64,000 nt of DNA, taken from positions 758-64,757 of the forward strand of contig DAIMKF010000006.1 of the NCBI GenBank assembly GCA_036721855.1, written 5' to 3'. Of this stretch, positions 11,898 to 53,187 are shown piece by piece (position 1 is the first letter of the stretch; every line of letters begins with the position of its first letter). Origin of the DNA: Bacillota bacterium. Lineage in GTDB: Bacteria > Bacillota > DTU065. The position numbers were made by a program, and so were the translations under genes. Under the pieces are notes generated by a model. That model saw only the letters and a program-made list of their open reading frames with translations, made no database searches and had not been told where the DNA came from.

Positions 11898-14800
11898 TTA
11901 AAACCAAGCTCGCAATAGATTGCTCAAAGAACTGAGTATGCTAAGATAAGCTGCCATCTCAGTTGGATCTATCTTCTTGCTTCTTGCAACGTAAATTACA
12001 TCACCTGGATAAACTTCGGGATTTTCACTAGCACGTCCTTCAAAGACCAACTTGCCACTACCGGCAGAGATCTTAGTCTCAGCTAAAGGCTCACCGCCCC
12101 TGTAGATCTTTACGTTACCCAAATCAGTGAACTTTGTCGGTCCTCCGGCCATGGCTATCAAATCAATAAGTTTACTTGTCGGAGTAACACTAAAACTGCC
12201 TGGTTTTTCGACTTCACCTAAAACAGTAATGGGTTGAATCTCTCTGACTAGGATTGTTTCATCTCCAAAGAGAGGATGGTTTCCAAGAGGTGCATAACTT
12301 ACTACCTCTCCACGTTTAATTTCAATCTTATTAAGATCGGCGTTGTTTGTGACACCGCCGGCTAAAGCTATAATGGTTGCTAAGTCATCACCTTGTTTAT
12401 AGCTATACAAGCCAGGCCTTTGAACTTGCCCAAAAACTAGAATCTCCTTCCTAGCTTTGGGAATAAAGATTACTTCTCCCCCATTGAGAGTTAGGTTGCT
12501 TACGTCGGTCGGATCATTAACTGCTTGAGCAATATTAAGATTAGTAAATTGATCCTTTGTACGCAAAGAAATATCATAAGCAGCCTGATCTGTTAGACCA
12601 CCGGCTAAGCCAATAATATCCAACAATTTTTGCCCTTTGGCCATTGTATATAGACCGGGGTGAGTTATTTCACCCATAACTAATACATCTTTCTGCCATT
12701 CGGGAATTTCCAAAATATCGCCACCATAAAGTAGCTCATTATAAGACCAGTCGACCTGTTTTCTGACACCATCTCTAATAATAACAGCATTTTCTAAATC
12801 ACTTCTATCGGTTTGGCCACCGGCCATAGCCAGAGCATCACGTACTGAAAAACCTTCCTGCCAATTGTAACTACCCGGTCTTGCTACCATACCAAGTACC
12901 ACAATCCTCTGGTTGGATGCGCCAATAAATAGAGATTCTCCGCCTGTGAGCTTTTCTCTGGCATTTATTTCGACTTCTCTGGATTGACCATCTGCAATAA
13001 TTGTAACGGTTTTGGCTGCATCAGGCTCTAAGCCACCGGCTAAAGCAATTGCATCGGCAACAGCTAGACCTTTTTTTAACTCATATGAACCTGGTCTAAC
13101 AACTTTGCCCGCAATAATTATTTCTTTTATTTCAGGTATAAAGATCTTGTCACCTAGTTCAATAACTTTGGCCCCTAAATCAGTTAAAGAGCCTTCAAAA
13201 ACTGTATTTTCTCTCTCTAAGCGAATCCTATTTTCATCTGCTTTTGTAGAAAGCCCTCCACAAAGGGCAATCACTTCTAAAAGTGTTTGACCCTCTTTTA
13301 AGGTTAAACTGCTAGGATTACGTACAGCACCTAAAACTATAACCGGGCTTTTTTGTGGTATATAAATTGTTGTACCTGCAGGTATTGTTATATCTTTTTT
13401 GCTATCGGTAAAAATACTTTGCAGGTCAACTCTGTTTTCTCCGACCAAAACAGCTTTGAGATTGGCTGTTTCTTTGGGTCCACCTGCCAAAGCCAAAGCA
13501 CTAAGAATAGTCTGTCCATCTTGATAGTTATAGCTACCGGGTTTTGCTACTTCACCTAAGACTAAAATCATTTCGGCGGAAGTCCCTACAAAGAGGGATT
13601 CTCCACCTAATAACATATCCCGTGAGTTAACTGGGACCTGATAGGTCTGTCCATCTCTAAATAGAGAAACTTTGTTGGCTGCATCACTTAAAAGACCACC
13701 TGCCAAAGCTAAGGCATCTGCAACTGTAAGTCCGGACTTTATCTCATACGAGCCTGGCTTTACAACTCTGCCTGCAACCACAACCTGTTTTTTCTCAAAA
13801 ACAGTAATTGTATCGCCATACTCTACTTCTTTGATGCCAAGTTCTGCTAACGGCCCTTCTAAAGTCTCGCCTTCTCGTTTTAGAGATATTCTTTCAGGAT
13901 CAGCTCTTTCGGTAAGCCCTCCTGAGATAGCAATCATTTCTAGGATTGTCTGACCTTCTTGCGGTATAATACTACCTGGATTTTTTACAAACCCTAAAAC
14001 CAAAACCGGACTCTTCTTGGGTATATAAATTGTTGTACCGACAGTTAGGTTAATATCTTTTTTAGGTTCTGCAAACAACTCAAGTACATCAACTTTTATA
14101 TTGTTGATTAATACATCTTTTAAATTAGCATTGTTTGTAGGTCCACCTGCTAGAGCTAAGGCACCTAAAAGAGTCTGTGCCTGTGAATAGGTATAGTTAC
14201 CTGGCTTTGCTACTTCACCTAATATTAAGATCATATCTTTGGCCATATCTATAAATAAAGATTCTCCGCCTTGAAGCGGGTCTCTGGCCTTGGTAAAAGT
14301 CTCATAACTTATTCCTGAATGAAAAACAGTTACTTTACTAGAAGCATCCGGTAACAGGCCTCCGGCTAAAGCTATGACATCAGCTACACTCATACCGTCT
14401 TTTATCTGGTAGGCACCGGGACGGACAACCTTGCCTGCAATAACTACCTGTTTCTTTTCAGCAACAATAATGACATCGCCAAGTTGAACTTTTTTGTCAT
14501 CTAATTCGCTGAAAGAACTTTCAAAAATAGTACCGTCTCTATTAACGCGGATGTCATTTTCATCGGCATTAACTGTTAAGCCACCAGCTAAAGCTATAAC
14601 ATCTAAAATAGTTAGTTCTTCGGTTTGGATATAAGTACCCGGATTTTTTACCGCACCCAAAACTAAAATAGGTCTTGCCGCTGGAAGATTAATCGTCTCA
14701 CCAGCTGTAAGCTTTTGGTCTAGTTGTGGGTTTTTAAGTATGAAATCTAAATCTATTTGCTTGTCTCCTAGCTGAAGATTTTTTAGATTAGCTGTTGGTA

Positions 14801-15206
14801 ATGGACCTCCAGCCATGGCCAAAGCATCTAAAAGAGTACTTCCTACCTCTAAATTATAAAAACCAGGTTTAGCAACTTGTCCTAAAATTTGCACTCGGAA
14901 AGTACGATATTTAATAATTTGCACTGTAACTAATGGTTCTCTAATATATGGCTCAAATCTATGTGCTATCTCTGTTTCGACCTCAGTTAGAGTCAAGTTG
15001 TTAACATCAAGTTGACCGGCCAAAGGAATAGCTATACGGCCGTCGGGACCTACTATTACTTCTGTTTTAAACTCCGGTCTTTCCCACACGGTGATTAAAA
15101 GATTGTCTCCAGGCCCTAATCTGTATAAATCAGCAGACCAGACACTACCAGTTAGTAATAAAAATAATAACAGAAAGAAACTACACAATTTGAACCTTTT
15201 GTGCAT
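11898..15206 (-). CDS. Outer-membrane polysaccharide export (OPX/Wza-like) protein with about 13 SLBB domains
   Basis: Signal peptide. N-terminal Poly_export-like region (YRLGPGDNLLITVWERPEF...VGPDGRIAIPLAGQLDV). Thirteen recurrences of the SLBB signature V.GxV..PG.Y......T..DA.A.AGG. Confidence 0.8.
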   Translation of the reverse strand: MHKRFKLCSFFLLLFLLLTGSVWSADLYRLGPGDNLLITVWERPEFKTEVIVGPDGRIAIPLAGQLDVNNLTLTEVETEIAHRFEPYIREPLVTVQIIKYRTFRVQILGQVAKPGFYNLEVGSTLLDALAMAGGPLPTANLKNLQLGDKQIDLDFILKNPQLDQKLTAGETINLPAARPILVLGAVKNPGTYIQTEELTILDVIALAGGLTVNADENDIRVNRDGTIFESSFSELDDKKVQLGDVIIVAEKKQVVIAGKVVRPGAYQIKDGMSVADVIALAGGLLPDASSKVTVFHSGISYETFTKARDPLQGGESLFIDMAKDMILILGEVAKPGNYTYSQAQTLLGALALAGGPTNNANLKDVLINNIKVDVLELFAEPKKDINLTVGTTIYIPKKSPVLVLGFVKNPGSIIPQEGQTILEMIAISGGLTERADPERISLKREGETLEGPLAELGIKEVEYGDTITVFEKKQVVVAGRVVKPGSYEIKSGLTVADALALAGGLLSDAANKVSLFRDGQTYQVPVNSRDMLLGGESLFVGTSAEMILVLGEVAKPGSYNYQDGQTILSALALAGGPKETANLKAVLVGENRVDLQSIFTDSKKDITIPAGTTIYIPQKSPVIVLGAVRNPSSLTLKEGQTLLEVIALCGGLSTKADENRIRLERENTVFEGSLTDLGAKVIELGDKIFIPEIKEIIIAGKVVRPGSYELKKGLAVADAIALAGGLEPDAAKTVTIIADGQSREVEINAREKLTGGESLFIGASNQRIVVLGMVARPGSYNWQEGFSVRDALAMAGGQTDRSDLENAVIIRDGVRKQVDWSYNELLYGGDILEIPEWQKDVLVMGEITHPGLYTMAKGQKLLDIIGLAGGLTDQAAYDISLRTKDQFTNLNIAQAVNDPTDVSNLTLNGGEVIFIPKARKEILVFGQVQRPGLYSYKQGDDLATIIALAGGVTNNADLNKIEIKRGEVVSYAPLGNHPLFGDETILVREIQPITVLGEVEKPGSFSVTPTSKLIDLIAMAGGPTKFTDLGNVKIYRGGEPLAETKISAGSGKLVFEGRASENPEVYPGDVIYVARSKKIDPTEMAAYLSILSSLSNLLRAWF
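12694..14682 (-). repeat. Intragenic higher-order tandem repeat, 663-bp (221-aa, three-SLBB) unit
   Basis: ggtatataaattgttgtacc occurs at 13357 and again at 14020, exactly 663 bp apart. The protein units QVVIAGKVVRPGAYQIKDG... and QVVVAGRVVKPGSYEIKSG... align over about 220 aa, with more diverged copies on both sides. Confidence 0.6.
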
Positions 15207-15345: not shown

Positions 15346-16260
15346 CTAAAAATAAACACCTGTAACCAATATGTCGTATCTTATTTCTAATGAAAGTTTG
15401 GTTCCACTTGGAATAATAAGTTCTTTACCTTTTACAAAAAATCCTGTAGCTAAGCTACCTTGATTGAAAATGACTGCTCCATCCACAGAAGGAGTTGCCA
15501 CAACACCTTGGGTTTTTGAGTTAAATTCTTTGATGGTTCTGTCGGTCATTCCTACTTTAAGATTAGTTTCGTCGATAGCTTCAAGACCAGTAAAAGATAC
15601 CTCGATACTACCACCTTTACCAAGGTTACCCGATGGTGAGACATTAAGAACTGATCCTCGGCCTTGCCGACCGGCAGGAATAACAACTCTGTCATTCACC
15701 TTAACATCCTCAACAACGGTATAGCTTACAACTGCCCCAGCTTTAGTATTTTCAGAATCTAGAATTGTATCTAATTGGATTTTCACTAAAGTCCCGGCTG
15801 GCATTTTTACACTCTCGGTCTTAAAGCTGCCGGAGGGAAAAATGTCCTTGCTGATTGTATTAACTCGCGAAAAAATTGTGCCTCTGTTTAATCCGCCATA
15901 AAATTGCTGTTCAATTTCATTTAATCGCGTGATAACAGAACTGCTAGAAAACTTCTGAAATAATGCCCATTCAATAACATTGAGTCTAAGTGCCACCGAA
16001 CCTTCAGGAAAACTTTCTCCCTTGACATAATTATAAGCGTTAGATAAACGAGGAACAAAAGCATCTTCTTTAATTTCACCGAAAATATCTTGTTCAATAC
16101 GGCTTAATCTAGTAGCAAATGGACCTGTGTCGGATTCACCATATAGTAATTTTTCAATTTCTACAAGAGCTTGCTGGGGAGGTGGCATTTCCACAGCTAA
16201 TGATGTGAAAGGCATGATAAAAAACAATGACATTAATAAGAAAACTGTCAATTTCCTCAT
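15346..16260 (-). CDS. Secreted protein: about six 20-aa repeats (RL..IE...FG) plus a C-terminal beta-rich domain
   Basis: Signal peptide (FIMPFTSLAVE). Repeats include RLSRIEQDIFG, RLNVIEWALFQ, RLNEIEQQFYG and RVNTISKDIF. C-terminal MPAGTLVKIQLDTILDSENTKAGAVVSYTVVEDVKVNDRVVIPAGRQGRGSV resembles the TrbI/VirB10-type pattern by eye. Confidence 0.45.
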   Translation of the reverse strand: MRKLTVFLLMSLFFIMPFTSLAVEMPPPQQALVEIEKLLYGESDTGPFATRLSRIEQDIFGEIKEDAFVPRLSNAYNYVKGESFPEGSVALRLNVIEWALFQKFSSSSVITRLNEIEQQFYGGLNRGTIFSRVNTISKDIFPSGSFKTESVKMPAGTLVKIQLDTILDSENTKAGAVVSYTVVEDVKVNDRVVIPAGRQGRGSVLNVSPSGNLGKGGSIEVSFTGLEAIDETNLKVGMTDRTIKEFNSKTQGVVATPSVDGAVIFNQGSLATGFFVKGKELIIPSGTKLSLEIRYDILVTGVYF

Positions 16261-16275
16261 ATCAAGATCCTCCTT

Positions 16276-17523
16276 TTAAAACTGGATACTAATTTCTGCA
16301 GTAGCTAAGTTTTCATCAGCTGTCTTGCCTGTGCTTTTTTCGGAAGAAGTTACCAAACGATAAGCTAAGTTAATATAAGTACTATTGCTAAAGTCATAAC
16401 CAAGTTTTAAATTGGCAGTATTACTTTCTTTTTCATTTTCTCGATTATAGTATTGATAATCAGCTTCAATACTTGCCTGAAGAATATCAATTTTGATACC
16501 TGCAGTTGCACCTTTTGTTGTAGCAAGTCCTTTTTCATTATCCTTAACTCCACCATAGAGCAAGCCAGCTTTTAATGTTGCCCACTGCCATATAGGAATC
16601 CCTACAACCAAAGAAGTTACCTGTGGCACCTCAATTTTTTCTTTACTAGTTGGAGGTATGGCAAAAGGTGGTTCAGGATTATAGATTTTACTTCCATCTT
16701 CGGTTATATAAGAATATAAAGGGCTATCTAAATAAGTAGCTAGTTCAATTTCGCCTAGTTTTACTGTAAAACCCAATTCAGGAATATTAAACGGTTTACT
16801 GCCAAGCCAGCTTTTTCTGGTGTTATAACTAGCCCCTAATTCGACAGGACCAACCTTCCATGCAGCTTGAAATCTATAAGGCTGTGTTTGTGAGCTAGAC
16901 ACAGCTCCACCTAAAGATACCTGGCCTAACTGAACTTCACCAGCAAGCTCATATTTGCCAAGTTGTGACATGTTTATATAATCCAGTCTAAATCTTGCCC
17001 AGTCAGCTAGCTCTTCAGTATAACTGGCTACAAATGGTTTAATCATTTCTGTGAATGTCTGTGCTAACTCACTATCTGCATTCCATAGACTATATAGTGC
17101 GACTTGGTTTTTTTCTTGATATACAGCAAACTGACCAAAATAAAAACCATAACCAAGATCATTAAGCTCGTTGCGATATTTATAAGTTAACCCCATTAAT
17201 GTTTGAACAGTTTCGGTAGTTAAATTAGGACAACGTGCTGTAATCTCAGGTATTTCATTAATAAGTGCCGGTAGATTAACTACTAGGCGTTCATAGTTGC
17301 CATCAAGATTAAAACCTGTGACTCTTTTCCATGCTCTGCCGACAAGATTTGCCAGTTCATAAGGACTGGTATTTTCGGCTTTTAAAATCGCACTCGCTTC
17401 CTGTGGTTGCAAAAGCCCTGAAACAACTAAGATATTAAGTTCATTTTTCTCGTTTTTGGCTAGAACAAGCCCTGAACATATGGTAGCAATAACCAATATA
17501 AGGGCGGTAAAATTGTTCTTCAT
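16276..17523 (-). CDS. Putative outer-membrane protein: N-terminal soluble domain plus C-terminal beta-barrel
   Basis: Signal peptide. Alternating hydrophobic beta-strand pattern in the C-terminal ~230 aa. Terminal ...AEISIQF matches the aromatic C-terminal OMP signature. Confidence 0.5.
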   Translation of the reverse strand: MKNNFTALILVIATICSGLVLAKNEKNELNILVVSGLLQPQEASAILKAENTSPYELANLVGRAWKRVTGFNLDGNYERLVVNLPALINEIPEITARCPNLTTETVQTLMGLTYKYRNELNDLGYGFYFGQFAVYQEKNQVALYSLWNADSELAQTFTEMIKPFVASYTEELADWARFRLDYINMSQLGKYELAGEVQLGQVSLGGAVSSSQTQPYRFQAAWKVGPVELGASYNTRKSWLGSKPFNIPELGFTVKLGEIELATYLDSPLYSYITEDGSKIYNPEPPFAIPPTSKEKIEVPQVTSLVVGIPIWQWATLKAGLLYGGVKDNEKGLATTKGATAGIKIDILQASIEADYQYYNRENEKESNTANLKLGYDFSNSTYINLAYRLVTSSEKSTGKTADENLATAEISIQF

Positions 17524-17581: not shown

Positions 17582-18016
17582 TTAACAGTCAGGATTTTCC
17601 TTCTTAGGATAATCATTATTCTCTGTGCTTGCTCTGGCTTTTTGAATATATCTTTTCACTAAAACTCTTGCTGCATAGTCATCAATTGGACGTTTGGGGA
17701 AGCGTAACCCATATGGTAAAATAACCTGCCAACCATACCCATTCTCTTCAAAATAGAGTTTTCTTGCTTCCAAGGTTGAAAAACTTTCTGGCATCACTAC
17801 AAACTTGTTTCCCATACCCTTCAATATTTCAATGTACTTTTTAGAAGTTGTACCGTCACCTATAATGACAGTAAGTTCTCTTTTTTTTATAAGATCTTTT
17901 AATTCTTCTTCTAATTCGAGTGCCGGGACAATCTTTTGTAACACTACTTTACCCTGACTATCTGTTAAGGCCAGACCGCATTTATCTTTGCCCGGATCTA
18001 TTCCTAAAAAGTACAT
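17582..18016 (-). CDS. YqgF/RuvX-like RNase H-fold nuclease paralog
   Basis: LGIDPGKDKCGLAL (catalytic Asp region), VIIGDGTTS, ESFSTLEARKLYFE and IDDYAARVLVKRYI parallel the YqgF motifs (DERLST.EA..., .D..AA.IIL..Y). Confidence 0.6.
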   Translation of the reverse strand: MYFLGIDPGKDKCGLALTDSQGKVVLQKIVPALELEEELKDLIKKRELTVIIGDGTTSKKYIEILKGMGNKFVVMPESFSTLEARKLYFEENGYGWQVILPYGLRFPKRPIDDYAARVLVKRYIQKARASTENNDYPKKENPDC

Positions 18017-18104: not shown

Positions 18105-18136
18105 TAAAAAAAGCGGTGGCACTGCCACCGCTTTTC
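18105..18136 (-). terminator. Rho-independent terminator after the SLH protein gene
   Basis: AAGCGGTGGCAGTGCCACCGCTTTTTTTAAC on the minus strand, with a GC-rich 9-bp stem. Confidence 0.7.
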
Positions 18137-18150
18137 TCTCTCAGATGTTA

Positions 18151-19257
18151 TTAAATAACAAAACCAACTATTATACCTGCAATACCTGCCAAAAGACCAA
18201 GAATAGCAATTGTTCTTGTGCTCTTGAGGTCCTTTTCCATTTTAATAATCTTATCGTTTTGTTCATCAAGTTTAGTTTGCATGTCGTTAACACGATTGAT
18301 AGTTACATATTTCTTCTCTAAGTCCTCCTGAACATTAGCTATTTTGGCATTACTTTCTTCAATTTTTGAATCTGTGTAGGTAATAGCTTTTGATTCAGCA
18401 GTTTCGACGTTCTCTAAAAGAGTATTAACCTTTGCATTAACCTCTTCTAAATCTTTATCAGTTTCGACAACATACATATCAAACAAGGTAAATATATTTT
18501 CCGATAGAGCTTTGTTGCTTTCGATTCTTTTCCCTAATAAAGTTGTCTCCTCATCAAACTTAATATCCAAGTTATTTATCTCGCTTGACAGCCTCTGGTC
18601 CATAGCTTTTAACTCGTTACCATTTTCCTCATAAAACAATTCAAACAACACAAATAAGTTTTCCGAAAGTTTCTTATTACTTTCGATTCTTTTACCTAAG
18701 AGAGTTATTTCCTCATCAATCTTAATGTCTGTATCTTCGGCCTTTCTCTCTAAAGCGGCTAATTTCTCAGCATATTCACCAATTATTGCCTTAACTTCAT
18801 CTTCTTTTAAACCTACAAGCTCGTGTACTATATGTTTTTCAATGATTTTTTCAACTGGTTTTTCAATATACTCTTTTTCGACGATTTTAGTTACTTCAAC
18901 CGGTTCTTGAACTACTCTATCTACAATTGTCTTTTCAATTATAGGCTGAACAGGTTGATTAACTGTTACAGGTTGCTGAATTATTCTTTCGACGACGGTT
19001 GCCGGTTGTTGTTCTATTCTATCTAAAACTTTGGCCACTAAAACAGCTACAGCATACCTATTCATTGGTTCGCTACCATGATAATTACCATCTGGCATAC
19101 CTGTTATTAAACCTTCGTCAACAAGCTTTGCTACTGCGTCATAAGCCCAGTGATCTGAAGGAATATCAGGAAATTGAGCAGAGACAACAAAGCTAAAACT
19201 CATAATAGTAATTACAACTACTGCCAGAAATTTAGTGACACGCTTTCTCATATGCAT
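18151..19257 (-). CDS. SLH-domain protein with a long coiled coil and a C-terminal transmembrane anchor
   Basis: Signal peptide. One SLH domain (FPDIPSDHWAYDAVAKLVDEGLITGMPDGNYHGSEPMNRYAVAVLVAKV). About 250 aa of heptad-rich sequence with a duplicated ~55-aa unit (KIDEEITLLGKRIESNKKLSENLF / KFDEETTLLGKRIESNKALSENIF). The protein ends in IAILGLLAGIAGIIVGFVI. Confidence 0.8.
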   Translation of the reverse strand: MHMRKRVTKFLAVVVITIMSFSFVVSAQFPDIPSDHWAYDAVAKLVDEGLITGMPDGNYHGSEPMNRYAVAVLVAKVLDRIEQQPATVVERIIQQPVTVNQPVQPIIEKTIVDRVVQEPVEVTKIVEKEYIEKPVEKIIEKHIVHELVGLKEDEVKAIIGEYAEKLAALERKAEDTDIKIDEEITLLGKRIESNKKLSENLFVLFELFYEENGNELKAMDQRLSSEINNLDIKFDEETTLLGKRIESNKALSENIFTLFDMYVVETDKDLEEVNAKVNTLLENVETAESKAITYTDSKIEESNAKIANVQEDLEKKYVTINRVNDMQTKLDEQNDKIIKMEKDLKSTRTIAILGLLAGIAGIIVGFVI

Positions 19258-19552
19258 TTACCCCCTCCGGTTATGTTAAAAATTTCTAATAACTGAGAAC
19301 ATACATAAAATATCTTAACACTGTTCTCAACCTCGAACCCAAAATGATAATACAACTAGATTATTAGCCACCTAAACTACCTATACAATAGTATTCTTCA
19401 GTTCAAAGGGATTTCCTTCCTTTAATCTTGTTTAAATTAAAGACGAGGTCATTTTTTACAGAAACAACAATTTCTGCCATGTATGAGTCCCTAAATCTAG
19501 GAGAGTTAACTCTCCCAGATTAGATATTGCAATGAGCTGGTGGTTTTCTCAG

Positions 19553-19846
19553 TTAGATTCCTTTATAACCAAGTTTGTTAAGTTCCCAAGATACTTCTTT
19601 AATAATGTGTTTAACATCATGTCTTAGATCGGGATATTCTCCTATAAGTCTACCTAAAATAACTGCAAATTCCATTCGGCTTAAATCTGCAAGTTGTAAA
19701 GCTTTTGTATATGTTGGAACTCTAGGCAAGGTGCTAATAATTCGCAAGACCTGTAAACGATAGTTTTTTTGAATAGGTTGAGCACTCGCAAGAATAGAAC
19801 AGAAAAATAAAATAATTAGTACAGTACCAACGGATTTAAGACGCAT
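19553..19846 (-). CDS. Small secreted hypothetical protein
   Basis: Signal peptide (LIILFFCSILASAQP). LSRMEFAVILGRLI is faintly reminiscent of the C-terminal half of an SLH motif. GGGGGG RBS. Confidence 0.4.
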   Translation of the reverse strand: MRLKSVGTVLIILFFCSILASAQPIQKNYRLQVLRIISTLPRVPTYTKALQLADLSRMEFAVILGRLIGEYPDLRHDVKHIIKEVSWELNKLGYKGI

Positions 19847-19903: not shown

Positions 19904-21127
19904 TTATGGTAACACTTCCACCTCTAGTTCACAGTTAATTGGAATTTCAGTGGTGATAACATCTTTGGCGGCGATGGCCTTGATTTTTAGAGTATTATTC
20001 TGATTAGTTGCTTTATCAATAGCTGATTGAAGAATCTTCACAGGTACATCAACTACTTTACCGTTTTCACCGACAATCATTCCTCTTTTGCGAACTGCAA
20101 TATTAAGATTTGTTAACATATTAGCAATCTCTTCAAAAATTTCTTGGGAGGTTAAATTGCTATTAATAACTGTCTCAGCTAAAAGGTCACCTTTATTAAA
20201 GATCTTTTGTTTGGGAAAGTACTCGAAAAAACAAGCCAATGGTTCACCCAGTACTGTATTGCCCCAAGCTACAATCCTAAAAACACCTTCTTCATTAGTG
20301 CTTGCAAAATTAGCGATATCTTGAATACTATTTAGATCTTCACCAATAATTCTTAGTGCCTTAAAACCCTTTTGTGTACTGCGAGCACCTTTTTCAAAGG
20401 CTAAAGAATCAGTTAACTCAATAGCTGAGAGGATTTGATTATCAATCTCCTGAGCAGTTCCGGATACCACTTTATTGTAAATTATTTCCTCAGTCTGATA
20501 AAGAATATAGCCTCCATATAATCGCACCAATGATTCTTCGGTATATTGTTTAGACTTTGTAGTCTCTTCGATTCTTGCGGTCAGCCTTTGCTCTACTTCT
20601 TTTAAAACATCCACTCTTGATTCGGCAATTTCCAATTCTAATGTCTTTTGGTCTAACGTCTTACTAGCTTCAGATAGCTGTTTTTTTATTGACTCATAGT
20701 CTTTATTCAATTGATTTAATTTAGAATCAGTTTCTTTTAGCTCTTCTATTGCTACAATCCTTTGTGAATCAATATTGGCAAGTTCGTCTTTAGTTTTGGC
20801 AATTAAAGATGATAGCTCTGCTAAATCCTTTTCTTTTATTACTAACTCCTCTTTCTGGTTAGCCAAGGTCGTTTTTAGCTTTTCAAGTCCAAATAAAGCA
20901 GTGCGAACTTCAATTGAAATAGCTGAAAGAAAAGCTACTGTGCCCAGTGTAATTACCATTCCTGTAATAATAGTTATTAAAATAGAGGTGTGCCTTGGTC
21001 TTAACCCAAAGAGAGTAAGCCTCTTTTTACCAACTTTAATACCTAACTTATCGCCTATAAAGGCTATAGTTCCACCAGTGATTGTGAGAACTAATAATAG
21101 AAGCACTCCACTTAGAGATAATCCCAA
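19904..21127 (-). CDS. DUF3084-like membrane coiled-coil protein
   Basis: N-terminus TIAFIGDKLGIKVGKKRLTLFGLRPRHTSILITIITG matches my recollection of the DUF3084 signature, followed by a second TM and a coiled coil. Starts 4 nt after the lptF/G stop. Confidence 0.5.
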   Translation of the reverse strand: MGLSLSGVLLLLVLTITGGTIAFIGDKLGIKVGKKRLTLFGLRPRHTSILITIITGMVITLGTVAFLSAISIEVRTALFGLEKLKTTLANQKEELVIKEKDLAELSSLIAKTKDELANIDSQRIVAIEELKETDSKLNQLNKDYESIKKQLSEASKTLDQKTLELEIAESRVDVLKEVEQRLTARIEETTKSKQYTEESLVRLYGGYILYQTEEIIYNKVVSGTAQEIDNQILSAIELTDSLAFEKGARSTQKGFKALRIIGEDLNSIQDIANFASTNEEGVFRIVAWGNTVLGEPLACFFEYFPKQKIFNKGDLLAETVINSNLTSQEIFEEIANMLTNLNIAVRKRGMIVGENGKVVDVPVKILQSAIDKATNQNNTLKIKAIAAKDVITTEIPINCELEVEVLP

Positions 21128-31384: not shown

Positions 31385-32120
31385 GTGCTAACTTACTTAA
31401 AGCTTCTTTTGTATCCAAGAGTCTTTCTCTGTACATTATACCAAGATAAGAGGCTGGCTGAGCAAATATTTTCTGAGGCGAAGCTTCTTCCACAATTTTG
31501 CCGGATTCCATAAGAACCAGCCGATCTGCCACTTTTAGAGCAAACGGCATCTCATGGGTTACTACCAACATCGTTTTTCTCTGGGCTAAAGAATCCATAA
31601 TTCGCAAAATCTCATGGACATACATAGGATCAAGAGCTGCTGTTGGTTCATCCCAAAAGATAATATCCGGATCTAGAGCCAGAGCTCTGGCAATACCTAC
31701 CCGTTGTTTTTCACCACCGGAGAGCTGTCTGGGATAGCGAAACCTTTTTTCCCAAAGGCCAACTGATTTTATGGCTTTTTCCGCTTGCGAAATATTTCGG
31801 TTGCCTTCCCAAAGGGCTAACAAAACATTTTCCAGTACGGTAAAATGCTCAAGCAACTGAAATTCTTGAAAAACTATACCCATTTTGCGCCTTTTTTTTC
31901 GTAGCATCTTTTCCGAAAGTGCTTGCAAATTGACACCTTCAAACCAGACTTCTCCTGCCTGAGGTTTAATAAGCCCTAGGGCTACTCTTATAAGAGTAGA
32001 TTTGCCACAACCACTCGGACCTGTCAAAACCACGGTTTCTCCTTCGTTGATGGTAAGATTAATATCTGCGAGAATCTTAATTTTATTTCTTTCTAAAAGT
32101 ATATTGTGTAATTCAAGCAT
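31380..32120 (-). CDS. ABC transporter ATP-binding protein (type-I importer-like NBD)
   Basis: GPSGCGKST, LSGGEKQRVGIARAL, IIFWDEPTAALDP and VTHEMPFA. The start ATG overlaps the upstream permease stop (ATGCTTGA). Confidence 0.85.
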   Translation of the reverse strand: MLELHNILLERNKIKILADINLTINEGETVVLTGPSGCGKSTLIRVALGLIKPQAGEVWFEGVNLQALSEKMLRKKRRKMGIVFQEFQLLEHFTVLENVLLALWEGNRNISQAEKAIKSVGLWEKRFRYPRQLSGGEKQRVGIARALALDPDIIFWDEPTAALDPMYVHEILRIMDSLAQRKTMLVVTHEMPFALKVADRLVLMESGKIVEEASPQKIFAQPASYLGIMYRERLLDTKEALSKLAQ

Positions 32121-33963
32121 GCTTAAACCTCCCCTGAGAAAGCAGCTTGCGGCGATTAATCAGCTGCCAAAGACCCGGTCTGCCGTCTGGGACAATAACC
32201 TGTCGGTAAAGTTCTCTCTTAGAAAGGCCCAATGCCTCGCCTGCTTCAATGCTTTTGGCATTAAGAGGCGAAATACGATTGGCCATGGTAATTAAGAGTG
32301 CACTACCTAAACCTCCGGCTACTATATAGATTACTTTAACTAACAGTGTAGTTGAAAAAGGCATGATTAAAGCTACCAGGCTTATTTCGGTTATACCTAG
32401 AATCCAGCCATAAAAAGGAGCCAAGAAGTTTTGTTTCATAAGCAGGTAACTGCCCCATAACGAATGATCAATGGCTATAAAGACCCAAAGAAGAATGACT
32501 GCGGCTGCTAAAGCCGCTAAGGGTACTATACCGCCAACTACTCCTCCAATTTGGCTTTTAATATCCTCTTTTATTTCAGCTGCGGGTTTGCAAACAACCC
32601 CGGGGATTGTAGGAGCTTTTTCGGTAGTTACAACCCTAAGTGCCTTTTGGCGATTTAAGGATTCTATATCACGCCAGCTTTTATATATATCTTCGTCGCT
32701 CCAAGATGGCAAACTTTCCTTGAGTTTTAATAGTGGGTCTGCGGGTAGAGTTTTAATCCATTCAAGAACCTTGTTCGCAAGATCAGCCCGGAAGTTTTCC
32801 GGTAATCTCCCAATTCGATCCCACAAAATCAGTATCTCCAGCTTAGATCTCAAGGCTTCAGGCAACTCTAAGTTTTGTTTTCTTGCCAACTGTTCTAAAT
32901 CTCTAAGAAGTAGTGAAAAGTCTTGGCCTTGCAGAATCTTGGTTGCTAGTTCTTTGGCGCTTACTTTTAAATCGGTAGCATCGGAAACAGGCGTCCAAGA
33001 CTCAAGATCCCGACGTGGACTTTCTAAACGATAAGTTGGTAGTACTTCTTTAAGACGTCCGCTCCCATCAAGCAGATAAGCCTTTTCATTGCCTTTTAAC
33101 TTTAAGGAGTCTCCGCTTACAAGGTATATACCATCTGTAAAAACACGGGCACGAAATTCGGTTTTGGGCTTGGAACCGATTTTAAGAGATTGATTAGATA
33201 AAATAAGATCAGCTCCGACTGGAAGTTTTTTGTCAAAGACTAATCGGGAATTATAACTTTTTAAAAGTCTGACTGCATCACCCATAACTCCTTCTGTGGA
33301 AGCAGCTAAATACCAGTATTCTTTGCCTTCCAAAGCCTTTTCTATTTCTTTTCGGGCTTTGGCAGCTTCTTGATTAGTCTGATCGGTTAACTCCAGTTCC
33401 CAAACATAGTAAGGAGCAGTTAGAGTCCTTAGCTTATTCTGAACGCTTTCCAAATGCCTTCTATCACGAGCAACCACATAAAGCCCTGTAGGCCCTTTGG
33501 CTGCAAAGCGTATTTCAGGCCAGGTATTTACCTGTTTAATTAATTTAGGATATACCTCCTGAGGTATTCCTTGCACTATAATTGCTGTATCCAGTAAAAG
33601 AGCTAATCCGGCATAACCCGGCAGAGGACCGACAAGTTTAGCTACCTCATCTAAAGCACCGTTTTTCAAATCCTGTTCACTAAATCCTATCAAAATGTGT
33701 GTCTTATCACCTAGTGTTTTACCTACACGATAGCGAAAAGCTTCTCGGCCGGAGTATGTTTCTTGTAAACCTTGCAAAAAACCCAGGGTATTTTTCTTTT
33801 CTACCTGGACAACAACTTGGTAATCTTTTCCCCCGACCAAATCATCTAATCCCCTTTGTACATAGAAGGAAAAGCCATGACCAGCGGCAAGAAGTGCAGT
33901 TGTGAGCAAAATAATTTCCAGAAAAATTACTATGGCTAAATCTGTGTGAATTCCACCACGCAT
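32113..33963 (-). CDS. Atypical ABC membrane component: N-terminal TM, ~440-aa periplasmic domain, three TMs and an EAA coupling loop, then termination
   Basis: EAGEALGLSKRELYRQVIVPDGRPG matches the EAA loop (EAA...G.......F..I.LP) of type-I permeases. Only about 20 aa follow it, so the last two core helices are absent. Confidence 0.5.
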   Translation of the reverse strand: MRGGIHTDLAIVIFLEIILLTTALLAAGHGFSFYVQRGLDDLVGGKDYQVVVQVEKKNTLGFLQGLQETYSGREAFRYRVGKTLGDKTHILIGFSEQDLKNGALDEVAKLVGPLPGYAGLALLLDTAIIVQGIPQEVYPKLIKQVNTWPEIRFAAKGPTGLYVVARDRRHLESVQNKLRTLTAPYYVWELELTDQTNQEAAKARKEIEKALEGKEYWYLAASTEGVMGDAVRLLKSYNSRLVFDKKLPVGADLILSNQSLKIGSKPKTEFRARVFTDGIYLVSGDSLKLKGNEKAYLLDGSGRLKEVLPTYRLESPRRDLESWTPVSDATDLKVSAKELATKILQGQDFSLLLRDLEQLARKQNLELPEALRSKLEILILWDRIGRLPENFRADLANKVLEWIKTLPADPLLKLKESLPSWSDEDIYKSWRDIESLNRQKALRVVTTEKAPTIPGVVCKPAAEIKEDIKSQIGGVVGGIVPLAALAAAVILLWVFIAIDHSLWGSYLLMKQNFLAPFYGWILGITEISLVALIMPFSTTLLVKVIYIVAGGLGSALLITMANRISPLNAKSIEAGEALGLSKRELYRQVIVPDGRPGLWQLINRRKLLSQGRFKHA

Positions 33964-40275: not shown

Positions 40276-41097
40276 TTAAAAAACATAATTAAAGCCCGCA
40301 CTGTGACCAATCTTTCCCTCTTTATAAGCAAGACCTAAGTCTAGACTGTAGCGGTTTTTATCTTTAAGACCACTATATGTTACCCCTAAAGAGGGCATAA
40401 ATTGTTTAAATGTTGTATCTAGTCCTAAACCGCCTCGAAAACACCACGAGGTTCTTTTATACTCCAAACCAAAGCTAAAATTGGTCCTTTTGTCTGGACT
40501 AGTAAAAGCATCAAAGCTTATAGCTAAGGGCTGAATAATCCTAAAGGTAAGAGCAAGACGAACTAAAGATGTGTTTGATATCAATGAATTGTTATTGTCC
40601 GACCATGTTAAAATATCTTTTACCACTAGAGCCGTTGTTAGATTTTCAAACCAATCTGCCCCAATAGCTAGATCCATACCATACGAATTGGGGTTAGCCT
40701 TTCTATAGATCAGGTTTATCCCGCCGTAGACAGGACTAGTACAAAAAGCGATGGTGTAATAAAAATGGTTTTGTTTAGCTTCTGGGATGAAAAGCCAAGT
40801 AAGGCCTCCTGCTAATCTAAAATTAGTGAGTCTGGGGTTATATAAATCTGAAAAACCTGGTTCTAAATAACCCATAACGATCCTGTTTGTGCCAAAATAT
40901 TCATAGCCGCCTCCTAAAAGACGCCCTTTTAGCTGACTAAGTGCGGCAGGATTATTTAACACAGCATCAAACCCATAAGCTGTTGCGGCACCTAAATTTT
41001 TCTGACTAAAAAGTTCAGAGGCTAAACTTACTCTAGCCATAGCACAGATTATAAATACTAATGCTAAAGCCAACCATCTTTTTTGCAACCTCTCCAC
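40276..41097 (-). CDS. Putative small outer-membrane beta-barrel protein
   Basis: Signal peptide, alternating strand pattern, C-terminal ...GFNYVF. Confidence 0.45.
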   Translation of the reverse strand: MERLQKRWLALALVFIICAMARVSLASELFSQKNLGAATAYGFDAVLNNPAALSQLKGRLLGGGYEYFGTNRIVMGYLEPGFSDLYNPRLTNFRLAGGLTWLFIPEAKQNHFYYTIAFCTSPVYGGINLIYRKANPNSYGMDLAIGADWFENLTTALVVKDILTWSDNNNSLISNTSLVRLALTFRIIQPLAISFDAFTSPDKRTNFSFGLEYKRTSWCFRGGLGLDTTFKQFMPSLGVTYSGLKDKNRYSLDLGLAYKEGKIGHSAGFNYVF

Positions 41098-41100
41098 CTC

Positions 41101-41727
41101 CTAAAAAGTAGTGGTGAGATAGGCACCGATTGATAGAGTATTGAAGTTTAACAGGCCAATATCTACACCCAAGTTACGGTTAAATTGCAATCTGCTGCCA
41201 ACATTAAAAACTGCAGGTGTATCTTTTAAGTTGCTGTTATCCCTAAATTCACCCATTATTGTAACTACAGGCAAAAGGGTTCCTGCCGGAGATACAGTTA
41301 CCGGGTTTAGGACAAAACTAATGCCACCAAAAAATCCACCGTAACTGCCCGTACCAAAACCAAAATGCCCTTTTAGACCTTTATTGGTCAGATTTTTACT
41401 TGTCACTCCATAAAAAGCAGAGCCTGTTGCTCCTACCGCAAAAGCAGGAAGTTCGGGAGTCTCTTCAATTAAGCGCCATTTGAAAAAGCCAACAAGTGGC
41501 CTGTTTATTGCTCCTGCTATACCAAGTTCAACATTATCAATAAAAGTAGCTTTGAGATTGGCATAAAAACTTCTATAGGTATAGCTGATGCCTAAACCTG
41601 CCAGGCCGGGCCTTGCTGTATCAGTTGTTGGTATAGTCAAAAGTCCTCTTGGACCTAGATAATTATCGGCCTGAGCCAGGAAAACACATAGCAAAAAGAT
41701 TATAAAGCCCAGTAAAAGTCGTTTCAC
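41101..41727 (-). CDS. Putative small outer-membrane beta-barrel protein
   Basis: Signal peptide (CVFLAQADN), Gly/aromatic-rich strands, C-terminal ...YLTTTF. 4-nt overlap with lpxD. Confidence 0.45.
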   Translation of the reverse strand: MKRLLLGFIIFLLCVFLAQADNYLGPRGLLTIPTTDTARPGLAGLGISYTYRSFYANLKATFIDNVELGIAGAINRPLVGFFKWRLIEETPELPAFAVGATGSAFYGVTSKNLTNKGLKGHFGFGTGSYGGFFGGISFVLNPVTVSPAGTLLPVVTIMGEFRDNSNLKDTPAVFNVGSRLQFNRNLGVDIGLLNFNTLSIGAYLTTTF

Positions 41728-42834: not shown

Positions 42835-44022
42835 TTATTTTATCTGGTTATTTTCTTGTCTGTTTAACAACAAAAGCAATTCTTCGGTTAAATCCACAGC
42901 ATTATTAGGGATCTTATCGACTAATATCCCCGGGCGACAACCTCTTTTTATGGCTAATACTTTTAGACCTTCGAGGCATTCTTGCTCAATCCTCTTTAGA
43001 AGTTTTTCCTTTTTTGTAAGCAAATTTGCCAATTGATTTTGCTGTTTTTCTTTAAATGCATTTAATAAAAGTAATCTCTGCTTCTGGGCACTACCATGTT
43101 CAATATTCTCCAATGCTCTTGCAAGCTCGCTGCGTCTTTTTTCTGCAGCTTGAACTTCTTTTGTCATTGCCTGTAAATAATAGTTTTCTTTCTCCTTATA
43201 AGTTATTTCGAGCTCTTTTTCTTTTTTAGCTAAACTATTTAGCCTGTTTACAAGCAAATCATCCAGTTCATTTTTTTGCTCTTCTTTTAGTTCAATAAGT
43301 CGCTGCTGCCATTCTTGTTGCTTTTTTTCCAGCTCTTTTTCCGGGTTAGCTTCTCCTTTAGTACCGACTTCGTTTCTGTTAACATCAGTTTGCTTATTCT
43401 TAAAGCCTATGTCGACCCTGATGGAATATCTTGCTTGTATTTCAGTAGAGTTTTGTCTTCTTTCAAGATAGGCTAACTCTTGTAAATACTGTTCTTCTTC
43501 CAAGGCAATTCGCCTTTGATATTTTTCTAAAATCTGCTTTTGGGCTTTTTCCAGTTCATTATGTGCTTCTCTTTGGAGATTTTCCTTTTCCAAAACCATT
43601 TCTTTGCGAATTTGTATGAGCAGATCATCTTTTAATTTAGCTACCGAATTAGTTACTAATTCCAACTGCTTACCCAAAAATTTCTGGGGATTTGCCGAAC
43701 TTGTTTGGCTCTCCCATTCTTGCAAGAGATCATCGTAGGCTGATTGCTCTATTGTTCTTGTAGCGATCTCTCGGGTTAGTTTTTCAACTTCAGGGTAAAG
43801 GGGATGCTTTTTAAGAGCACTGTCTCTAACTGCCACTGCTTGATAGTTTATTGTGTTTTCTTGATAAACAGTCTCTGATTTGGTTGTTTTTTGGGGCTTT
43901 AGAAGACCTGTTTGTTGCTTAAAAAGGTTTAATGAATCTTTGTTACTTATAAATCCCACTATACAACCGCAAATAAAAAGCCCGACTACAAAGTTCCAAC
44001 TCCATTTCCTTTGGCCAGTCAC
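42835..44022 (-). CDS. Membrane-anchored, greatly elongated OmpH/Skp-family paralog
   Basis: N-terminal TM (FVVGLFICGCIVGFI). The body-domain strands (YQAVAVRDSALKKHPLY; KVLAIKRGCRPGILVDKIPNNAVDLTEELLLLLN) parallel those of the adjacent Skp, separated by about 300 aa of E/K/Q-rich coiled coil. Confidence 0.5.
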   Translation of the reverse strand: MTGQRKWSWNFVVGLFICGCIVGFISNKDSLNLFKQQTGLLKPQKTTKSETVYQENTINYQAVAVRDSALKKHPLYPEVEKLTREIATRTIEQSAYDDLLQEWESQTSSANPQKFLGKQLELVTNSVAKLKDDLLIQIRKEMVLEKENLQREAHNELEKAQKQILEKYQRRIALEEEQYLQELAYLERRQNSTEIQARYSIRVDIGFKNKQTDVNRNEVGTKGEANPEKELEKKQQEWQQRLIELKEEQKNELDDLLVNRLNSLAKKEKELEITYKEKENYYLQAMTKEVQAAEKRRSELARALENIEHGSAQKQRLLLLNAFKEKQQNQLANLLTKKEKLLKRIEQECLEGLKVLAIKRGCRPGILVDKIPNNAVDLTEELLLLLNRQENNQIK

Positions 44023-51510: not shown

Positions 51511-53187
51511 CTAAAGCAAACTATTTTCTAATATTTCTAAGTCAAAAGTTATTTCCCCCTCCATAACATAGTCGGTTGCTAGCCGATTCTGTACCGGTAA
51601 GGGAATATCATTTGCATCATCATTTTCATATAAACCCTCATCAAACGGCGGGTAGAACTCTACTACAAGTTCATTATTCTTCTCACGGTTTAGAAAATCT
51701 TTAAGAACCTTTTCCCAGTCCTTTGCTTCTTGAGAAATCGGTGTGCTTTTGCGTTCTTCGGAGTGTAATTCAAGTTTTTCGCTTACAGAAACAGAGTCTG
51801 ATTCATAAGAAGAAATTGATATGCCCGGGCGTACAACAACATGAACCATGCCGGGTGTAATATCCTTAGGGATAGGTAGAACCATCTTAACTGTCTCTGT
51901 TTCACCTCTAAAGGGTCGCAACTGAATTTTAACTTCAAGATCTTGGCCCGGGTTAACTTGATTGGCCTCCGGGTTGGCACTGGTAATAACTGCTGTGTTT
52001 CTAGTTTCAGTGAATTCAGCTAAAACTGTGATCTCATTCGGTTCGACTTTGTAATAGTCGTTAAATAATATTAAATCCAGTATCTCTGCTATTTCACTTA
52101 AACTAAGTGCGGCTATATCCGCATAACTATAGAAATAGTTTTCCCTTTCCAGAGTATAAGGTAGGCCTTGGCCTTTAATAGTAAATTTAATCTTTGAACT
52201 ACCGGCCCCTACTCTATCTATACCTCTGTCAAAACCTTCTAAGACTGTACTAACTGCCAGTTTATCAAAAAGCATATTGTCAGGAATAACAAAAGCTTTG
52301 GTTTCAAGAGCTTGATCTAAATCTTTTTCCTTCACAACTACTTTTACCGGTACCATCAGAGGACTTTTACCTAAGCTCCCCAAGATACCTGCTCCTCTAT
52401 CTTCGCTGATAAGACCGATTTTTTCGCTAAAACTAGCTAACTTAAAGCTTGTAGACTGACCTTGAATTACTGCGTGGATAAAGCTGGTGCTAGCCAGATA
52501 AGCTGTTTTGCCTCTTTTTAACAGAGGATGACCGAAAGCTAGAAATCTTCCGTCCGGATAGATAGTAGTTACGGTGCCAAAACCACCTACAGTAACATCA
52601 CCGGTTACCAGTAAAACACCCAAAGCGGATCCTGGTTCTATCTGCAAATTTGCACTGTCTTTAAGACCGGCACTGCTTTTGGCTATTTTAAACCCTAGCT
52701 GTTTTTCTAAAAACAATCTGCCTCGATCACCAAAACCACCGGCAACTAGGGGGGTAGACAATGATCTTAGTGTTGTATTGGTGGGAAAATGTTCAAGCGG
52801 AAAATCACTTGCAGGCAGAGCGAGTAGCTTTTCCATTTCACTAATCGGTGTTACAAGACCCAAGATATGTCCATAATCATTAAAGCCATAACTGATAGCC
52901 CCTAAAAGCTTGCCCTCTATATAAACAGGACTGCCACTCATGCCTTCAACGACTCCGCCTAATTCCAGTGCTTTGCCACCGACCTTAATTAAAATAAAAT
53001 CGCCAACAGTTCCTTCACCGGGAATAATACTCACTATCTCTACCGGAAACTCTTCTACCTTTGTACCTGAAAACACAGTTTTACCAATACCTTTTAGTCC
53101 GGGCACAACTTCATTGAAAGGAAAATTTGCAGCCCCGAGAGTTACTGACAATATAACAATTAAAATTAGTGCTATCCTTCTTTTCAT
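51511..53187 (-). CDS. Peptidase S55 (SpoIVB-type) domain protein
   Basis: Signal/anchor sequence. GVVEGMSGSPVYIEGKLLGAISYGF closely parallels the SpoIVB catalytic-Ser region. GTVTTIYPDGRFLAFGHPL provides the His region. Confidence 0.7.
   Translation of the reverse strand: MKRRIALILIVILSVTLGAANFPFNEVVPGLKGIGKTVFSGTKVEEFPVEIVSIIPGEGTVGDFILIKVGGKALELGGVVEGMSGSPVYIEGKLLGAISYGFNDYGHILGLVTPISEMEKLLALPASDFPLEHFPTNTTLRSLSTPLVAGGFGDRGRLFLEKQLGFKIAKSSAGLKDSANLQIEPGSALGVLLVTGDVTVGGFGTVTTIYPDGRFLAFGHPLLKRGKTAYLASTSFIHAVIQGQSTSFKLASFSEKIGLISEDRGAGILGSLGKSPLMVPVKVVVKEKDLDQALETKAFVIPDNMLFDKLAVSTVLEGFDRGIDRVGAGSSKIKFTIKGQGLPYTLERENYFYSYADIAALSLSEIAEILDLILFNDYYKVEPNEITVLAEFTETRNTAVITSANPEANQVNPGQDLEVKIQLRPFRGETETVKMVLPIPKDITPGMVHVVVRPGISISSYESDSVSVSEKLELHSEERKSTPISQEAKDWEKVLKDFLNREKNNELVVEFYPPFDEGLYENDDANDIPLPVQNRLATDYVMEGEITFDLEILENSLL

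Follow-up and report, generated by a model that had tools for sequence, protein, structure and literature searches.

OmpM and SlpA proteins carry one SLH domain per chain, and in the trimer the three SLH domains form the binding head (PMC10628300). Diderm Firmicutes have been described with a one-piece OmpM, and in Thermotogae, Bipolaricaulota and Fraserbacteria the OmpM-like system was reported as "split into two adjacent proteins" (Witwinowski et al.; see also PMC13018214 for both). Ompα (OmpA1) of Thermotoga maritima has an SLH domain at the N-terminus, approximately 316 amino acids (aa) of coiled coil and a C-terminus that is hydrophobic; the protein occurs in the toga fraction and is described as being anchored in the outer membrane, and the porin gene ompB lies next to its gene (PMC3387000; PMC10160955). 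No report of an Ompα-type split tether in Firmicutes was found in the literature searched. Here we describe a gene encoding a 368 aa protein (positions 18151..19257, minus strand) in a 64,000 nucleotide stretch of DNA, hereafter the window (GenBank assembly GCA_036721855.1, contig DAIMKF010000006.1, positions 758 to 64,757), from a Bacillota bacterium of DTU065, the sister class of Limnochordia in the GTDB group Firmicutes_G (PMC11456536). The protein consists of a signal peptide, an SLH domain, a linker, a helical rod and a C-terminal helix, and with a probability of roughly 0.55 we consider it to be a tether of the Ompα type, connecting peptidoglycan with the outer membrane and descended from a long-stalk Firmicutes_G OmpM. 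We refer to it as the putative tether.

An SLH-linker-rod-helix protein family

The open reading frame (ORF) is present as an exact copy on 17 metagenome or metagenome-assembled genome (MAG) contigs. A word-indexed search returned eight homologues of 249-355 aa, labelled 'SLH domain-containing protein [Bacillota bacterium]', and since the whole architecture is conserved in all eight at 42-80% identity, the putative tether is not a chance ORF. When it was compared with 1.8 billion representatives using phmmer, four matches scored below 1e-30 and the remainder matched the SLH domain alone, while five genomes in GTDB carry the family, all from uncultured Bacillota, 'Clostridia bacterium DTU065' and UBA4881 among them. 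Even where overall identity has dropped to 42%, the SLH domain, linker, juxtamembrane segment and helix remain conserved, in a set of at least five species-level genomes, and as judged from these searches the family does not extend beyond uncultured Bacillota of class DTU065. Comparison of the C-termini of the 78 best GTDB SLH loci identified a helical hydrophobic tail only in the tether family and in two Thermosipho Ompα proteins, with all other complete proteins being OmpM-type barrels. Of the 130 ORFs in the window, the putative tether alone has a significant SLH match, and the same is true for its counterparts in all eight clade loci; the clade genomes occur once each among the 78 best SLH loci, and several Halanaerobium and Selenomonas genomes occur twice.

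A Kyte-Doolittle scan detected two hydrophobic segments, at residues 7-27 and at the extreme C-terminus. The first is part of the signal peptide (residues 1-27, …FVVSA/QFPD, 19177..19257, minus strand), which on reading of the sequence has its hydrophobic region at residues 7-27, ends in VSA/Q and lacks a lipobox, consistent with a type I signal peptide cleaved at a site that we placed by eye. Translation may in truth start at Met3, the residue at whose equivalent the homologues begin. The single SLH domain (residues 28-82, 19012..19176, minus strand) matches Pfam PF00395 over residues 29-67 (E=1.1e-9, 38.5 bits versus a cut-off of 20.8) and a local SLH hidden Markov model (HMM) at E=5e-31, and was responsible for the top matches in a PDB profile search, to SlpA (7zgx, 1e-16) and to the V. 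parvula OmpM (8bys and 8bym, 1e-15 to 4e-13). Its ligand motif is N-R-Y-A (residues 64-67, 19057-19068, minus strand). Every family member has N-R-Y-A/S at this position, a combination absent from the other proteins among the 76 SLH segments compared, nearly all of which have T-R-Y-E or a one-residue variant; the motif of the Limnochordia protein L034 is D-R-Y-T. With T-R-Y-E replaced by N-R-Y-A/S, the ligand of the putative tether may therefore differ, and the substitution points to a wall ligand that is changed or relaxed. The annotated genes of the window, to which this look-up was confined, include none for CsaB (pyruvyl transferase).

The SLH domain is followed by a conserved linker rich in Pro, Val, Glu, Lys and Gln and predicted to be non-helical coil (residues 83-146, …IIEKTIVDRVVQEPVEVTKIVEKEYIEKPVEKIIEKHIVHE, 18820..19011, minus strand), with its 64 aa nearly invariant across the family. 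The helical rod (residues 147-348, 18214..18819, minus strand) is predicted to be a segmented coiled coil, which would be approximately 30 nm long if straight. The AlphaFold2 (AF2) monomer has a predicted local distance difference test (pLDDT) score of 48 and only secondary structure was taken from this low-confidence model, with DSSP assigning helices to residues 152-211 and 216-367. A heptad register is present in segments (residues 146-180, 209-243, 258-299 and 321-348) and a global register is absent, while the family profile has weak PDB matches to trimeric coiled coils. Within the rod there is a tandem 54 aa duplication (residues 177-230 and 231-284, 18406..18729, minus strand, score 145-166), and the homologues P0004 and P0005 contain a separate duplication of 46 aa, so that the rod was lengthened independently at least twice by tandem duplication, by 54 aa in one branch and by 46 aa in another. 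Fifty-four residues are exactly 15 turns at the 3.6-residue hydrophobic periodicity which dominates the rod.

Across the family the rod varies from 98 to 206 aa (about 15-30 nm) and is also variable in sequence, with the near-invariant parts being the SLH domain, the linker, the approximately 30 residues preceding the membrane helix, and the hydrophobic helix. As the rod is free to vary in both length and sequence and was duplicated independently, its pattern of conservation is that of a spacer, judged by these alignments, and the twofold variation in rod length among close relatives is a natural experiment on periplasm spacing. The protein ends with the hydrophobic helix (residues 350-368, IAILGLLAGIAGIIVGFVI, 18154..18210, minus strand), which has a GxxxGxxGxxxG pattern and a Kyte-Doolittle mean of 2.81. 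Its Hessa-scale sum, obtained by simple addition of the scale values of Hessa et al. 2005, is -2.9 kcal/mol, within a family range of -2.0 to -3.5 kcal/mol.

With regard to expression signals, a Shine-Dalgarno sequence (GGAGGGGG, 19261..19268, minus strand) is located at the end of an upstream intergenic region of approximately 295 bp, the length of which is conserved at the homologous loci (283-337 bp). Approximately 20 nt past the stop codon is an intrinsic terminator (18106..18131, minus strand) with an 8-bp GC stem and a 3-nt loop (GCGGTGGC-agt-GCCACCGC) followed by T7, and the distance from stop codon to the next gene is only 134 bp, terminator included. An Rfam scan of the flanks of the gene gave nothing above gathering thresholds. 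That the protein is functional and abundant is supported by the strong Shine-Dalgarno sequence, by the gene's own terminator and by how tightly the SLH domain, the linker, the juxtamembrane segment and the helix are conserved.

A preliminary description of this DNA had listed a cleavable signal peptide, one SLH domain, an internal duplication of about 55 aa, a single hydrophobic helix at the very C-terminus and a strong terminator of the gene's own, all of which were recovered here. Two other elements of it needed revision: the SLH domain is canonical in its fold signature, but not in its ligand motif, and the proposed coiled coil of approximately 250 aa is reduced to about 200 helical residues with segmental heptads, as residues 83-146 belong to the non-helical linker.

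Two further sets of SLH proteins were noted in these searches. The metagenomic proteins P0187, P0188, P0192, P0208 and P0211 (approximately 230-520 aa) end in hydrophobic helices with Hessa-scale sums of +0.6 to -2.3, and published work may understate how widely the SLH-rod-helix architecture occurs. A Limnochordia MAG encodes an 888 aa protein (L034:9983-12649) with a signal peptide, an SLH domain, repetitive coiled coil over approximately 750 aa and a C-terminal tail of weak hydrophobicity; it adjoins ExbB-, ExbD- and TonB-like genes and is a barrel-less SLH rod in a lineage with a one-piece OmpM.

Genomic position and relationship to OmpM

The window contains a diderm-Firmicute outer membrane cluster with genes for FlgA/H/I (flagellar L and P rings), TamB, BamA, Skp, LpxD, LpxA, LpxI, LpxB, MsbA, LptB/C/F/G and an LptD-like protein, and with BamA, TamB, Skp, Lpt and Lpx encoded the organism has an outer membrane to tether. 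As had been noticed before, the gene lies between the lpx/lpt genes and polysaccharide export genes, the exporter being a giant Wza/SLBB protein. The gene order is DUF3084 (COG4372, 19904..21127, Pfam E=6.7e-27), a 97 aa ORF, the putative tether, a YqgF/RuvX-like gene (COG0816, 17582..18016; RuvX E=6e-6, 27.1 bits, under the 29.2-bit cut-off), a 415 aa Porin_4-like protein, a 304 aa outer membrane protein-like protein, the Wza/SLBB exporter and ATP synthase, with the named neighbours from DUF3084 to COG0816 on the minus strand, and the order from DUF3084 up to the 304 aa protein is kept in every homologous locus.

Both COG4372/DUF3084 and the YqgF-like COG0816 are conserved unknowns of the outer membrane cluster in which OmpM genes are also found, and COG0816 was listed as specific for this cluster (Antunes 2016, PMC5007114). 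HMMs of the neighbours of the putative tether were built and run over all fetched loci. In Limnochordia and other Firmicutes_G the order is DUF3084, in some cases a small SLH-like ORF, an OmpM of 618-912 aa, the YqgF-like gene, a barrel of approximately 495 aa and a homologue of the 304 aa protein, with a looser form of this neighbourhood in Halanaerobium and Armatimonadota. The gene between DUF3084 and the YqgF-like gene is OmpM in these genomes and the putative tether in class DTU065, which thus holds the OmpM position. There is also a sequence motif in common: [IV][IV]E[KRQT]x[IV], present in the linker, was found in 27/29 Firmicutes_G proteins, in OmpM stalks (e.g. the motif-rich module 'PIVEKTIVEQPIEKVVERQPIE…' of L044), and in 0/24 others (0/10 Halanaerobiales, 0/12 Negativicutes and 0/2 Thermosipho). 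The genomic slot, the SLH domain and the linker motif give good support to the earlier proposal of an OmpM-like tether that lacks the barrel. By SLH similarity alone the OmpMs of Halanaerobium and Limnochordia score about equally, and the nearest OmpM lineage is not separated in this way; comparison of the conserved juxtamembrane segment with the OmpM stalk-barrel junction gave no correspondence (hhalign probability at most 1.2%).

The proposed partner is the 415 aa outer membrane β-barrel (16276..17523, minus strand), which ends in …AEISIQF and has a vestigial SLH helix and a stalk motif. It matches Pfam Porin_4 with 28.0 bits (cut-off 27), has a signal peptide, and is present in all clade genomes. 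It is encoded two genes downstream of the putative tether and is not immediately adjacent, with the terminator and YqgF-like gene intervening. Pairwise BLASTP of the barrel against OmpM proteins gave nothing, a PDB profile search with the barrel family gave no match, a database search returned the same clade only and no SLH-bearing relatives, and hhalign against generic OmpM groups gave no clear result. The link emerged via the positional orthologues in Limnochordia: the short-stalk, SLH-like barrels of approximately 495 aa at the same position matched by hhalign with 98.6% probability (E=6e-16, 347 columns), in an alignment spanning the remnant of SLH helix 2, the 'L..EF..EL.vLGY' stalk motif and the terminal 'ATAEfSIrF'. 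These Limnochordia proteins still start with an SLH-like 'DHWxY…NRYE', and based on this alignment the 415 aa barrel is the orthologue of the short-stalk OmpM paralogue, with the first half of its SLH domain lost.

This second, short-stalk OmpM-like protein of approximately 495 aa follows the YqgF-like gene in Limnochordia-type genomes (L016:6763-8250, L068:6800-8284, L078:12607-14100, L037:12990-14303, L044:10000-11481 and L079:12993-14504); its SLH domain is sub-threshold in Pfam and has N-R-Y/F-E/D instead of T-R-Y-E. The 415 aa barrel itself retains a highly conserved periplasmic N-terminal region of approximately 100 aa (residues 25-130).

On this comparison the losses are complementary: there is no barrel in the putative tether, and in the barrel protein the SLH domain is incomplete. 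The Firmicutes_G ancestor would have had a long-stalk and a short-stalk OmpM on either side of the YqgF-like gene; in class DTU065 the long-stalk OmpM would have lost its barrel and gained a helix as its end, and the short-stalk OmpM would have lost the first half of its SLH domain. Read most economically, the gene order and alignments suggest that the two paralogues degenerated in complementary ways and became a split tether, in convergence with Ompα/Ompβ.

Membrane assignment of the C-terminal helix

In the model which we favour, three chains would trimerise via the rod, as in OmpM/SlpA, and their three SLH domains would form a wall-binding head for peptidoglycan or a wall polymer, possibly with the altered specificity discussed above. 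The rod of 15-30 nm would set the wall-to-outer membrane spacing, and the C-terminal helices would anchor in or at the outer membrane, probably with the 415 aa barrel, the two proteins reconstituting non-covalently what is one chain in OmpM, as Ompα and Ompβ do in Thermotogae.

Assignment of the helix leans towards the outer membrane at slightly better than even odds, by the polarity of OmpM, the Ompα precedent and the similarity of the tails, the complementary losses, and the lack of a positive-inside signature, which is absent as the helix is followed by just 0-1 residues and has the basic residues on its N-terminal (periplasmic) side. With regard to Ompα, two Thermosipho loci were found in which Ompα is followed by a barrel gene, and the putative tether aligns collinearly with Thermosipho Ompα at E=2e-23, most of the score coming from the SLH domain. 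After removal of the SLH domain, the C-terminal 72 residues including the helix matched the Thermosipho Ompα tail (hhalign 91.6%, E=8e-7), and shuffle z-scores for the putative tether versus Ompα were 3.3-7.7, compared with 1.4 for a control coiled coil. Homology to Ompα may not extend beyond the SLH domain, and from the synteny the putative tether of class DTU065 probably had an independent origin, being derived from a Firmicutes_G OmpM.

Several observations weigh against an outer membrane tether derived from OmpM. The clade genomes may encode a one-piece OmpM elsewhere, as the SLH census covered the window and the clade loci. With the SLH domain excluded, an HMM matched OmpM stalks weakly (best 16.5 bits), the rod has no detectable homology to OmpM stalks, and hhalign probabilities versus Ompα were 3.4% for the rod and 2% for the tail without its transmembrane helix. 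The identity of the 415 aa barrel is based on a borderline Pfam match and a C-terminal β-signal, with its AF2 model (pLDDT 37) being unusable. The remaining points concern the helix itself. The Hessa-scale sums of 15 Thermosipho Ompα tails are -0.1 to -1.2 kcal/mol, which makes the tails of the tether family approximately 2 kcal/mol more hydrophobic and typical of inner membrane helices; by the rules established for E. coli, such hydrophobic tails should stop in SecYEG and remain in the inner membrane; and we know of no pathway that delivers an α-helical anchor to the outer membrane of a Firmicute.

These points also favour the strongest alternative, the peptidoglycan-to-inner-membrane strut of the preliminary description, in which the helix would act as a Sec stop-transfer anchor, with the rod based on the cytoplasmic membrane and the SLH domain gripping the peptidoglycan from below. 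The hydrophobicity of the tail indeed suits Sec stop-transfer, the N-terminal signal peptide means that Sec handles the protein, and the archaeal SlaB (8qox) is a precedent for a trimeric stalk with a C-terminal transmembrane helix in the cytoplasmic membrane. We nevertheless regard this alternative, a serious rival, as the less likely one: besides the missing positive-inside signature, ancestral OmpM polarity puts the C-terminus at the outer membrane, neither OmpM paralogue of the locus would still link the outer membrane to the wall although the outer membrane machinery is intact, the match to 8qox was not reproduced with a single sequence, and the identical architecture in Thermotogae, a precedent that had been overlooked, is reported in the outer membrane fraction. 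The corresponding evolutionary scenario, in which this lineage re-targeted its main OmpM from the outer membrane to the inner one while the paralogue lost its SLH domain, is likewise less likely. If it were true, class DTU065 would keep a lipopolysaccharide outer membrane without an SLH-based wall link encoded in the outer membrane cluster, and would represent a surviving halfway stage of the route to monodermy that has been proposed as 'lose the OmpM tether, lose the outer membrane'. In a variant of this scenario that is compatible with sporulation, the helix would insert in the mother-cell-derived outer spore membrane, later the outer membrane. The locus also sharpens the question by what means, if at all, an α-helical anchor gets to the outer membrane of a bacterium.

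It is very improbable that the C-terminal helix serves as a sorting signal (sortase, exosortase or rhombosortase type) that is cleaved off, with the mature rod attached covalently to wall or lipid, as the resemblance of a hydrophobic C-terminal helix with at most one Lys is superficial: NCBIfam sorting-signal models gave no match to the tail at E<=0.01, there is no LPXTG, PEP or GlyGly motif ahead of the helix and no trailing basic cluster, and the helix itself is the most conserved part. Equally hard to credit is a decaying OmpM remnant or an S-layer-type surface protein without a tethering role, for which the missing barrel, the altered T-R-Y-E and the freely drifting rod could be cited, given that conservation extends to 42% identity, the Shine-Dalgarno sequence and terminator are strong, the single SLH domain per chain is the OmpM/Ompα pattern versus the triple SLH domains of S-layer proteins, and with an outer membrane encoded the SLH domain faces the periplasm.

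Neighbouring genes and comparison with known systems

The 97 aa secreted protein encoded upstream of the putative tether (19553..19846, minus strand) is found in all clade genomes and contains a segment ('DLSRMEFAVILGRL') resembling SLH helix 2 and a C-terminal 'SWELxKLGY' (general form 'ELxKLGY') resembling the OmpM stalk motif. Pairwise BLASTP against OmpM proteins gave nothing, and hhalign matches were weak (70% over 18 columns versus SLH, 32% versus the Limnochordia ORFs in the same slot, which are SLH-like proteins of 264-360 aa). It could be what is left of a third OmpM paralogue, drastically reduced but still under selection (41-76% identity). The 304 aa protein (15346..16260, minus strand) is a conserved neighbour with a signal peptide that ends in …VTGVYF, and its homologues are found downstream of OmpM in Limnochordia, Halanaerobium and Anaerovibrio loci. 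The neighbourhood of DUF3084, YqgF-like gene, OmpM and omp304 also extends beyond the Firmicutes, to Armatimonadota and 'Ca. Fervidifonticultor' MAGs (among the loci L016-L079), which suggests an ancient functional module linking the DUF3084 and YqgF-like unknowns to OmpM.

The Wza-like exporter (11898-15206, minus strand) has 1102 aa, with a Poly_export domain and approximately 13 SLBB repeats, and as its orthologues in related genomes have 735-888 aa, the number of repeats varies among close relatives. Four ORFs of the outer membrane cluster, all on the minus strand, are without Pfam or NCBIfam match: a 395 aa ORF between Skp and LpxD (42835-44022), a 616 aa ORF upstream of LptB (32113-33963), and two ORFs of 273 and 208 aa (40276-41097 and 41101-41727) which have a signal peptide, end in F and resemble small outer membrane β-barrels. 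Finally, a SpoIVB-peptidase-like protein (51511-53187, minus strand, PF05580, E=1.7e-10) is encoded between the flagellar ring genes and TamB, a hint that this diderm lineage may sporulate.

Braun's lipoprotein Lpp of Gracilicutes, a helical trimer of 58 aa which is lipid-anchored and covalently bound to peptidoglycan and whose length sets the distance between outer membrane and peptidoglycan, is a functional analogue only, without SLH domain or sequence relationship to the putative tether. SlaB of Sulfolobus acidocaldarius has a trimeric coiled-coil stalk together with a transmembrane helix at its C-terminus (family profile E=4.8e-5 to 8qox), but is archaeal, resides in the sole (cytoplasmic) membrane and has β-sandwich domains instead of SLH, and the match probably reflects composition. 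The class of monoderm S-layer or SLH surface proteins was rejected, as it needs three tandem SLH domains and no outer membrane, whereas there is a single SLH domain here and outer membrane genes are present in the window. In the OmpM/SlpA superfamily (V. parvula OmpM1, D. radiodurans SlpA, Limnochordia OmpM) one SLH domain per chain is likewise followed by a helical stalk, and the slot between DUF3084 and COG0816 is the same, whereas the putative tether has N-R-Y-A/S for T-R-Y-E and a single 19-residue hydrophobic helix for the C-terminal β-barrel.

The Thermotogae pair Ompα (OmpA1, TM0477) and Ompβ (TM0476) is similar in its signal peptide, single SLH domain, long rod and Gly-rich C-terminal helix, in size (337-397 aa for Ompα versus 249-368 aa for the tether family) and in having a barrel gene nearby on the same strand. 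It differs in its phylum (Thermotogae versus Bacillota class DTU065), in a rod of approximately 45-50 nm versus 15-30 nm, and in its less hydrophobic tail, while the putative tether has the additional conserved P/V/E/K linker, the N-R-Y-A/S motif, and a YqgF-like gene and terminator between it and the barrel. A mirror-image OmpM had been presented as something new in the preliminary description, but the architecture is known from Ompα, which already combines SLH domain, coiled coil and C-terminal transmembrane helix; what the comparison suggests to be new is the occurrence in a Bacillota lineage and the apparent independent origin from OmpM. Outside Thermotogae, the split Ompα/Ompβ form had been reported from just two neighbouring phyla; the same end state would now be found in Firmicutes, where the sister class still shows the one-piece ancestor at this genomic position. 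Together with the complementary degeneration of the two paralogues, this would make the locus a datable, stepwise example of the change from a barrel-anchored to a helix-anchored tether.

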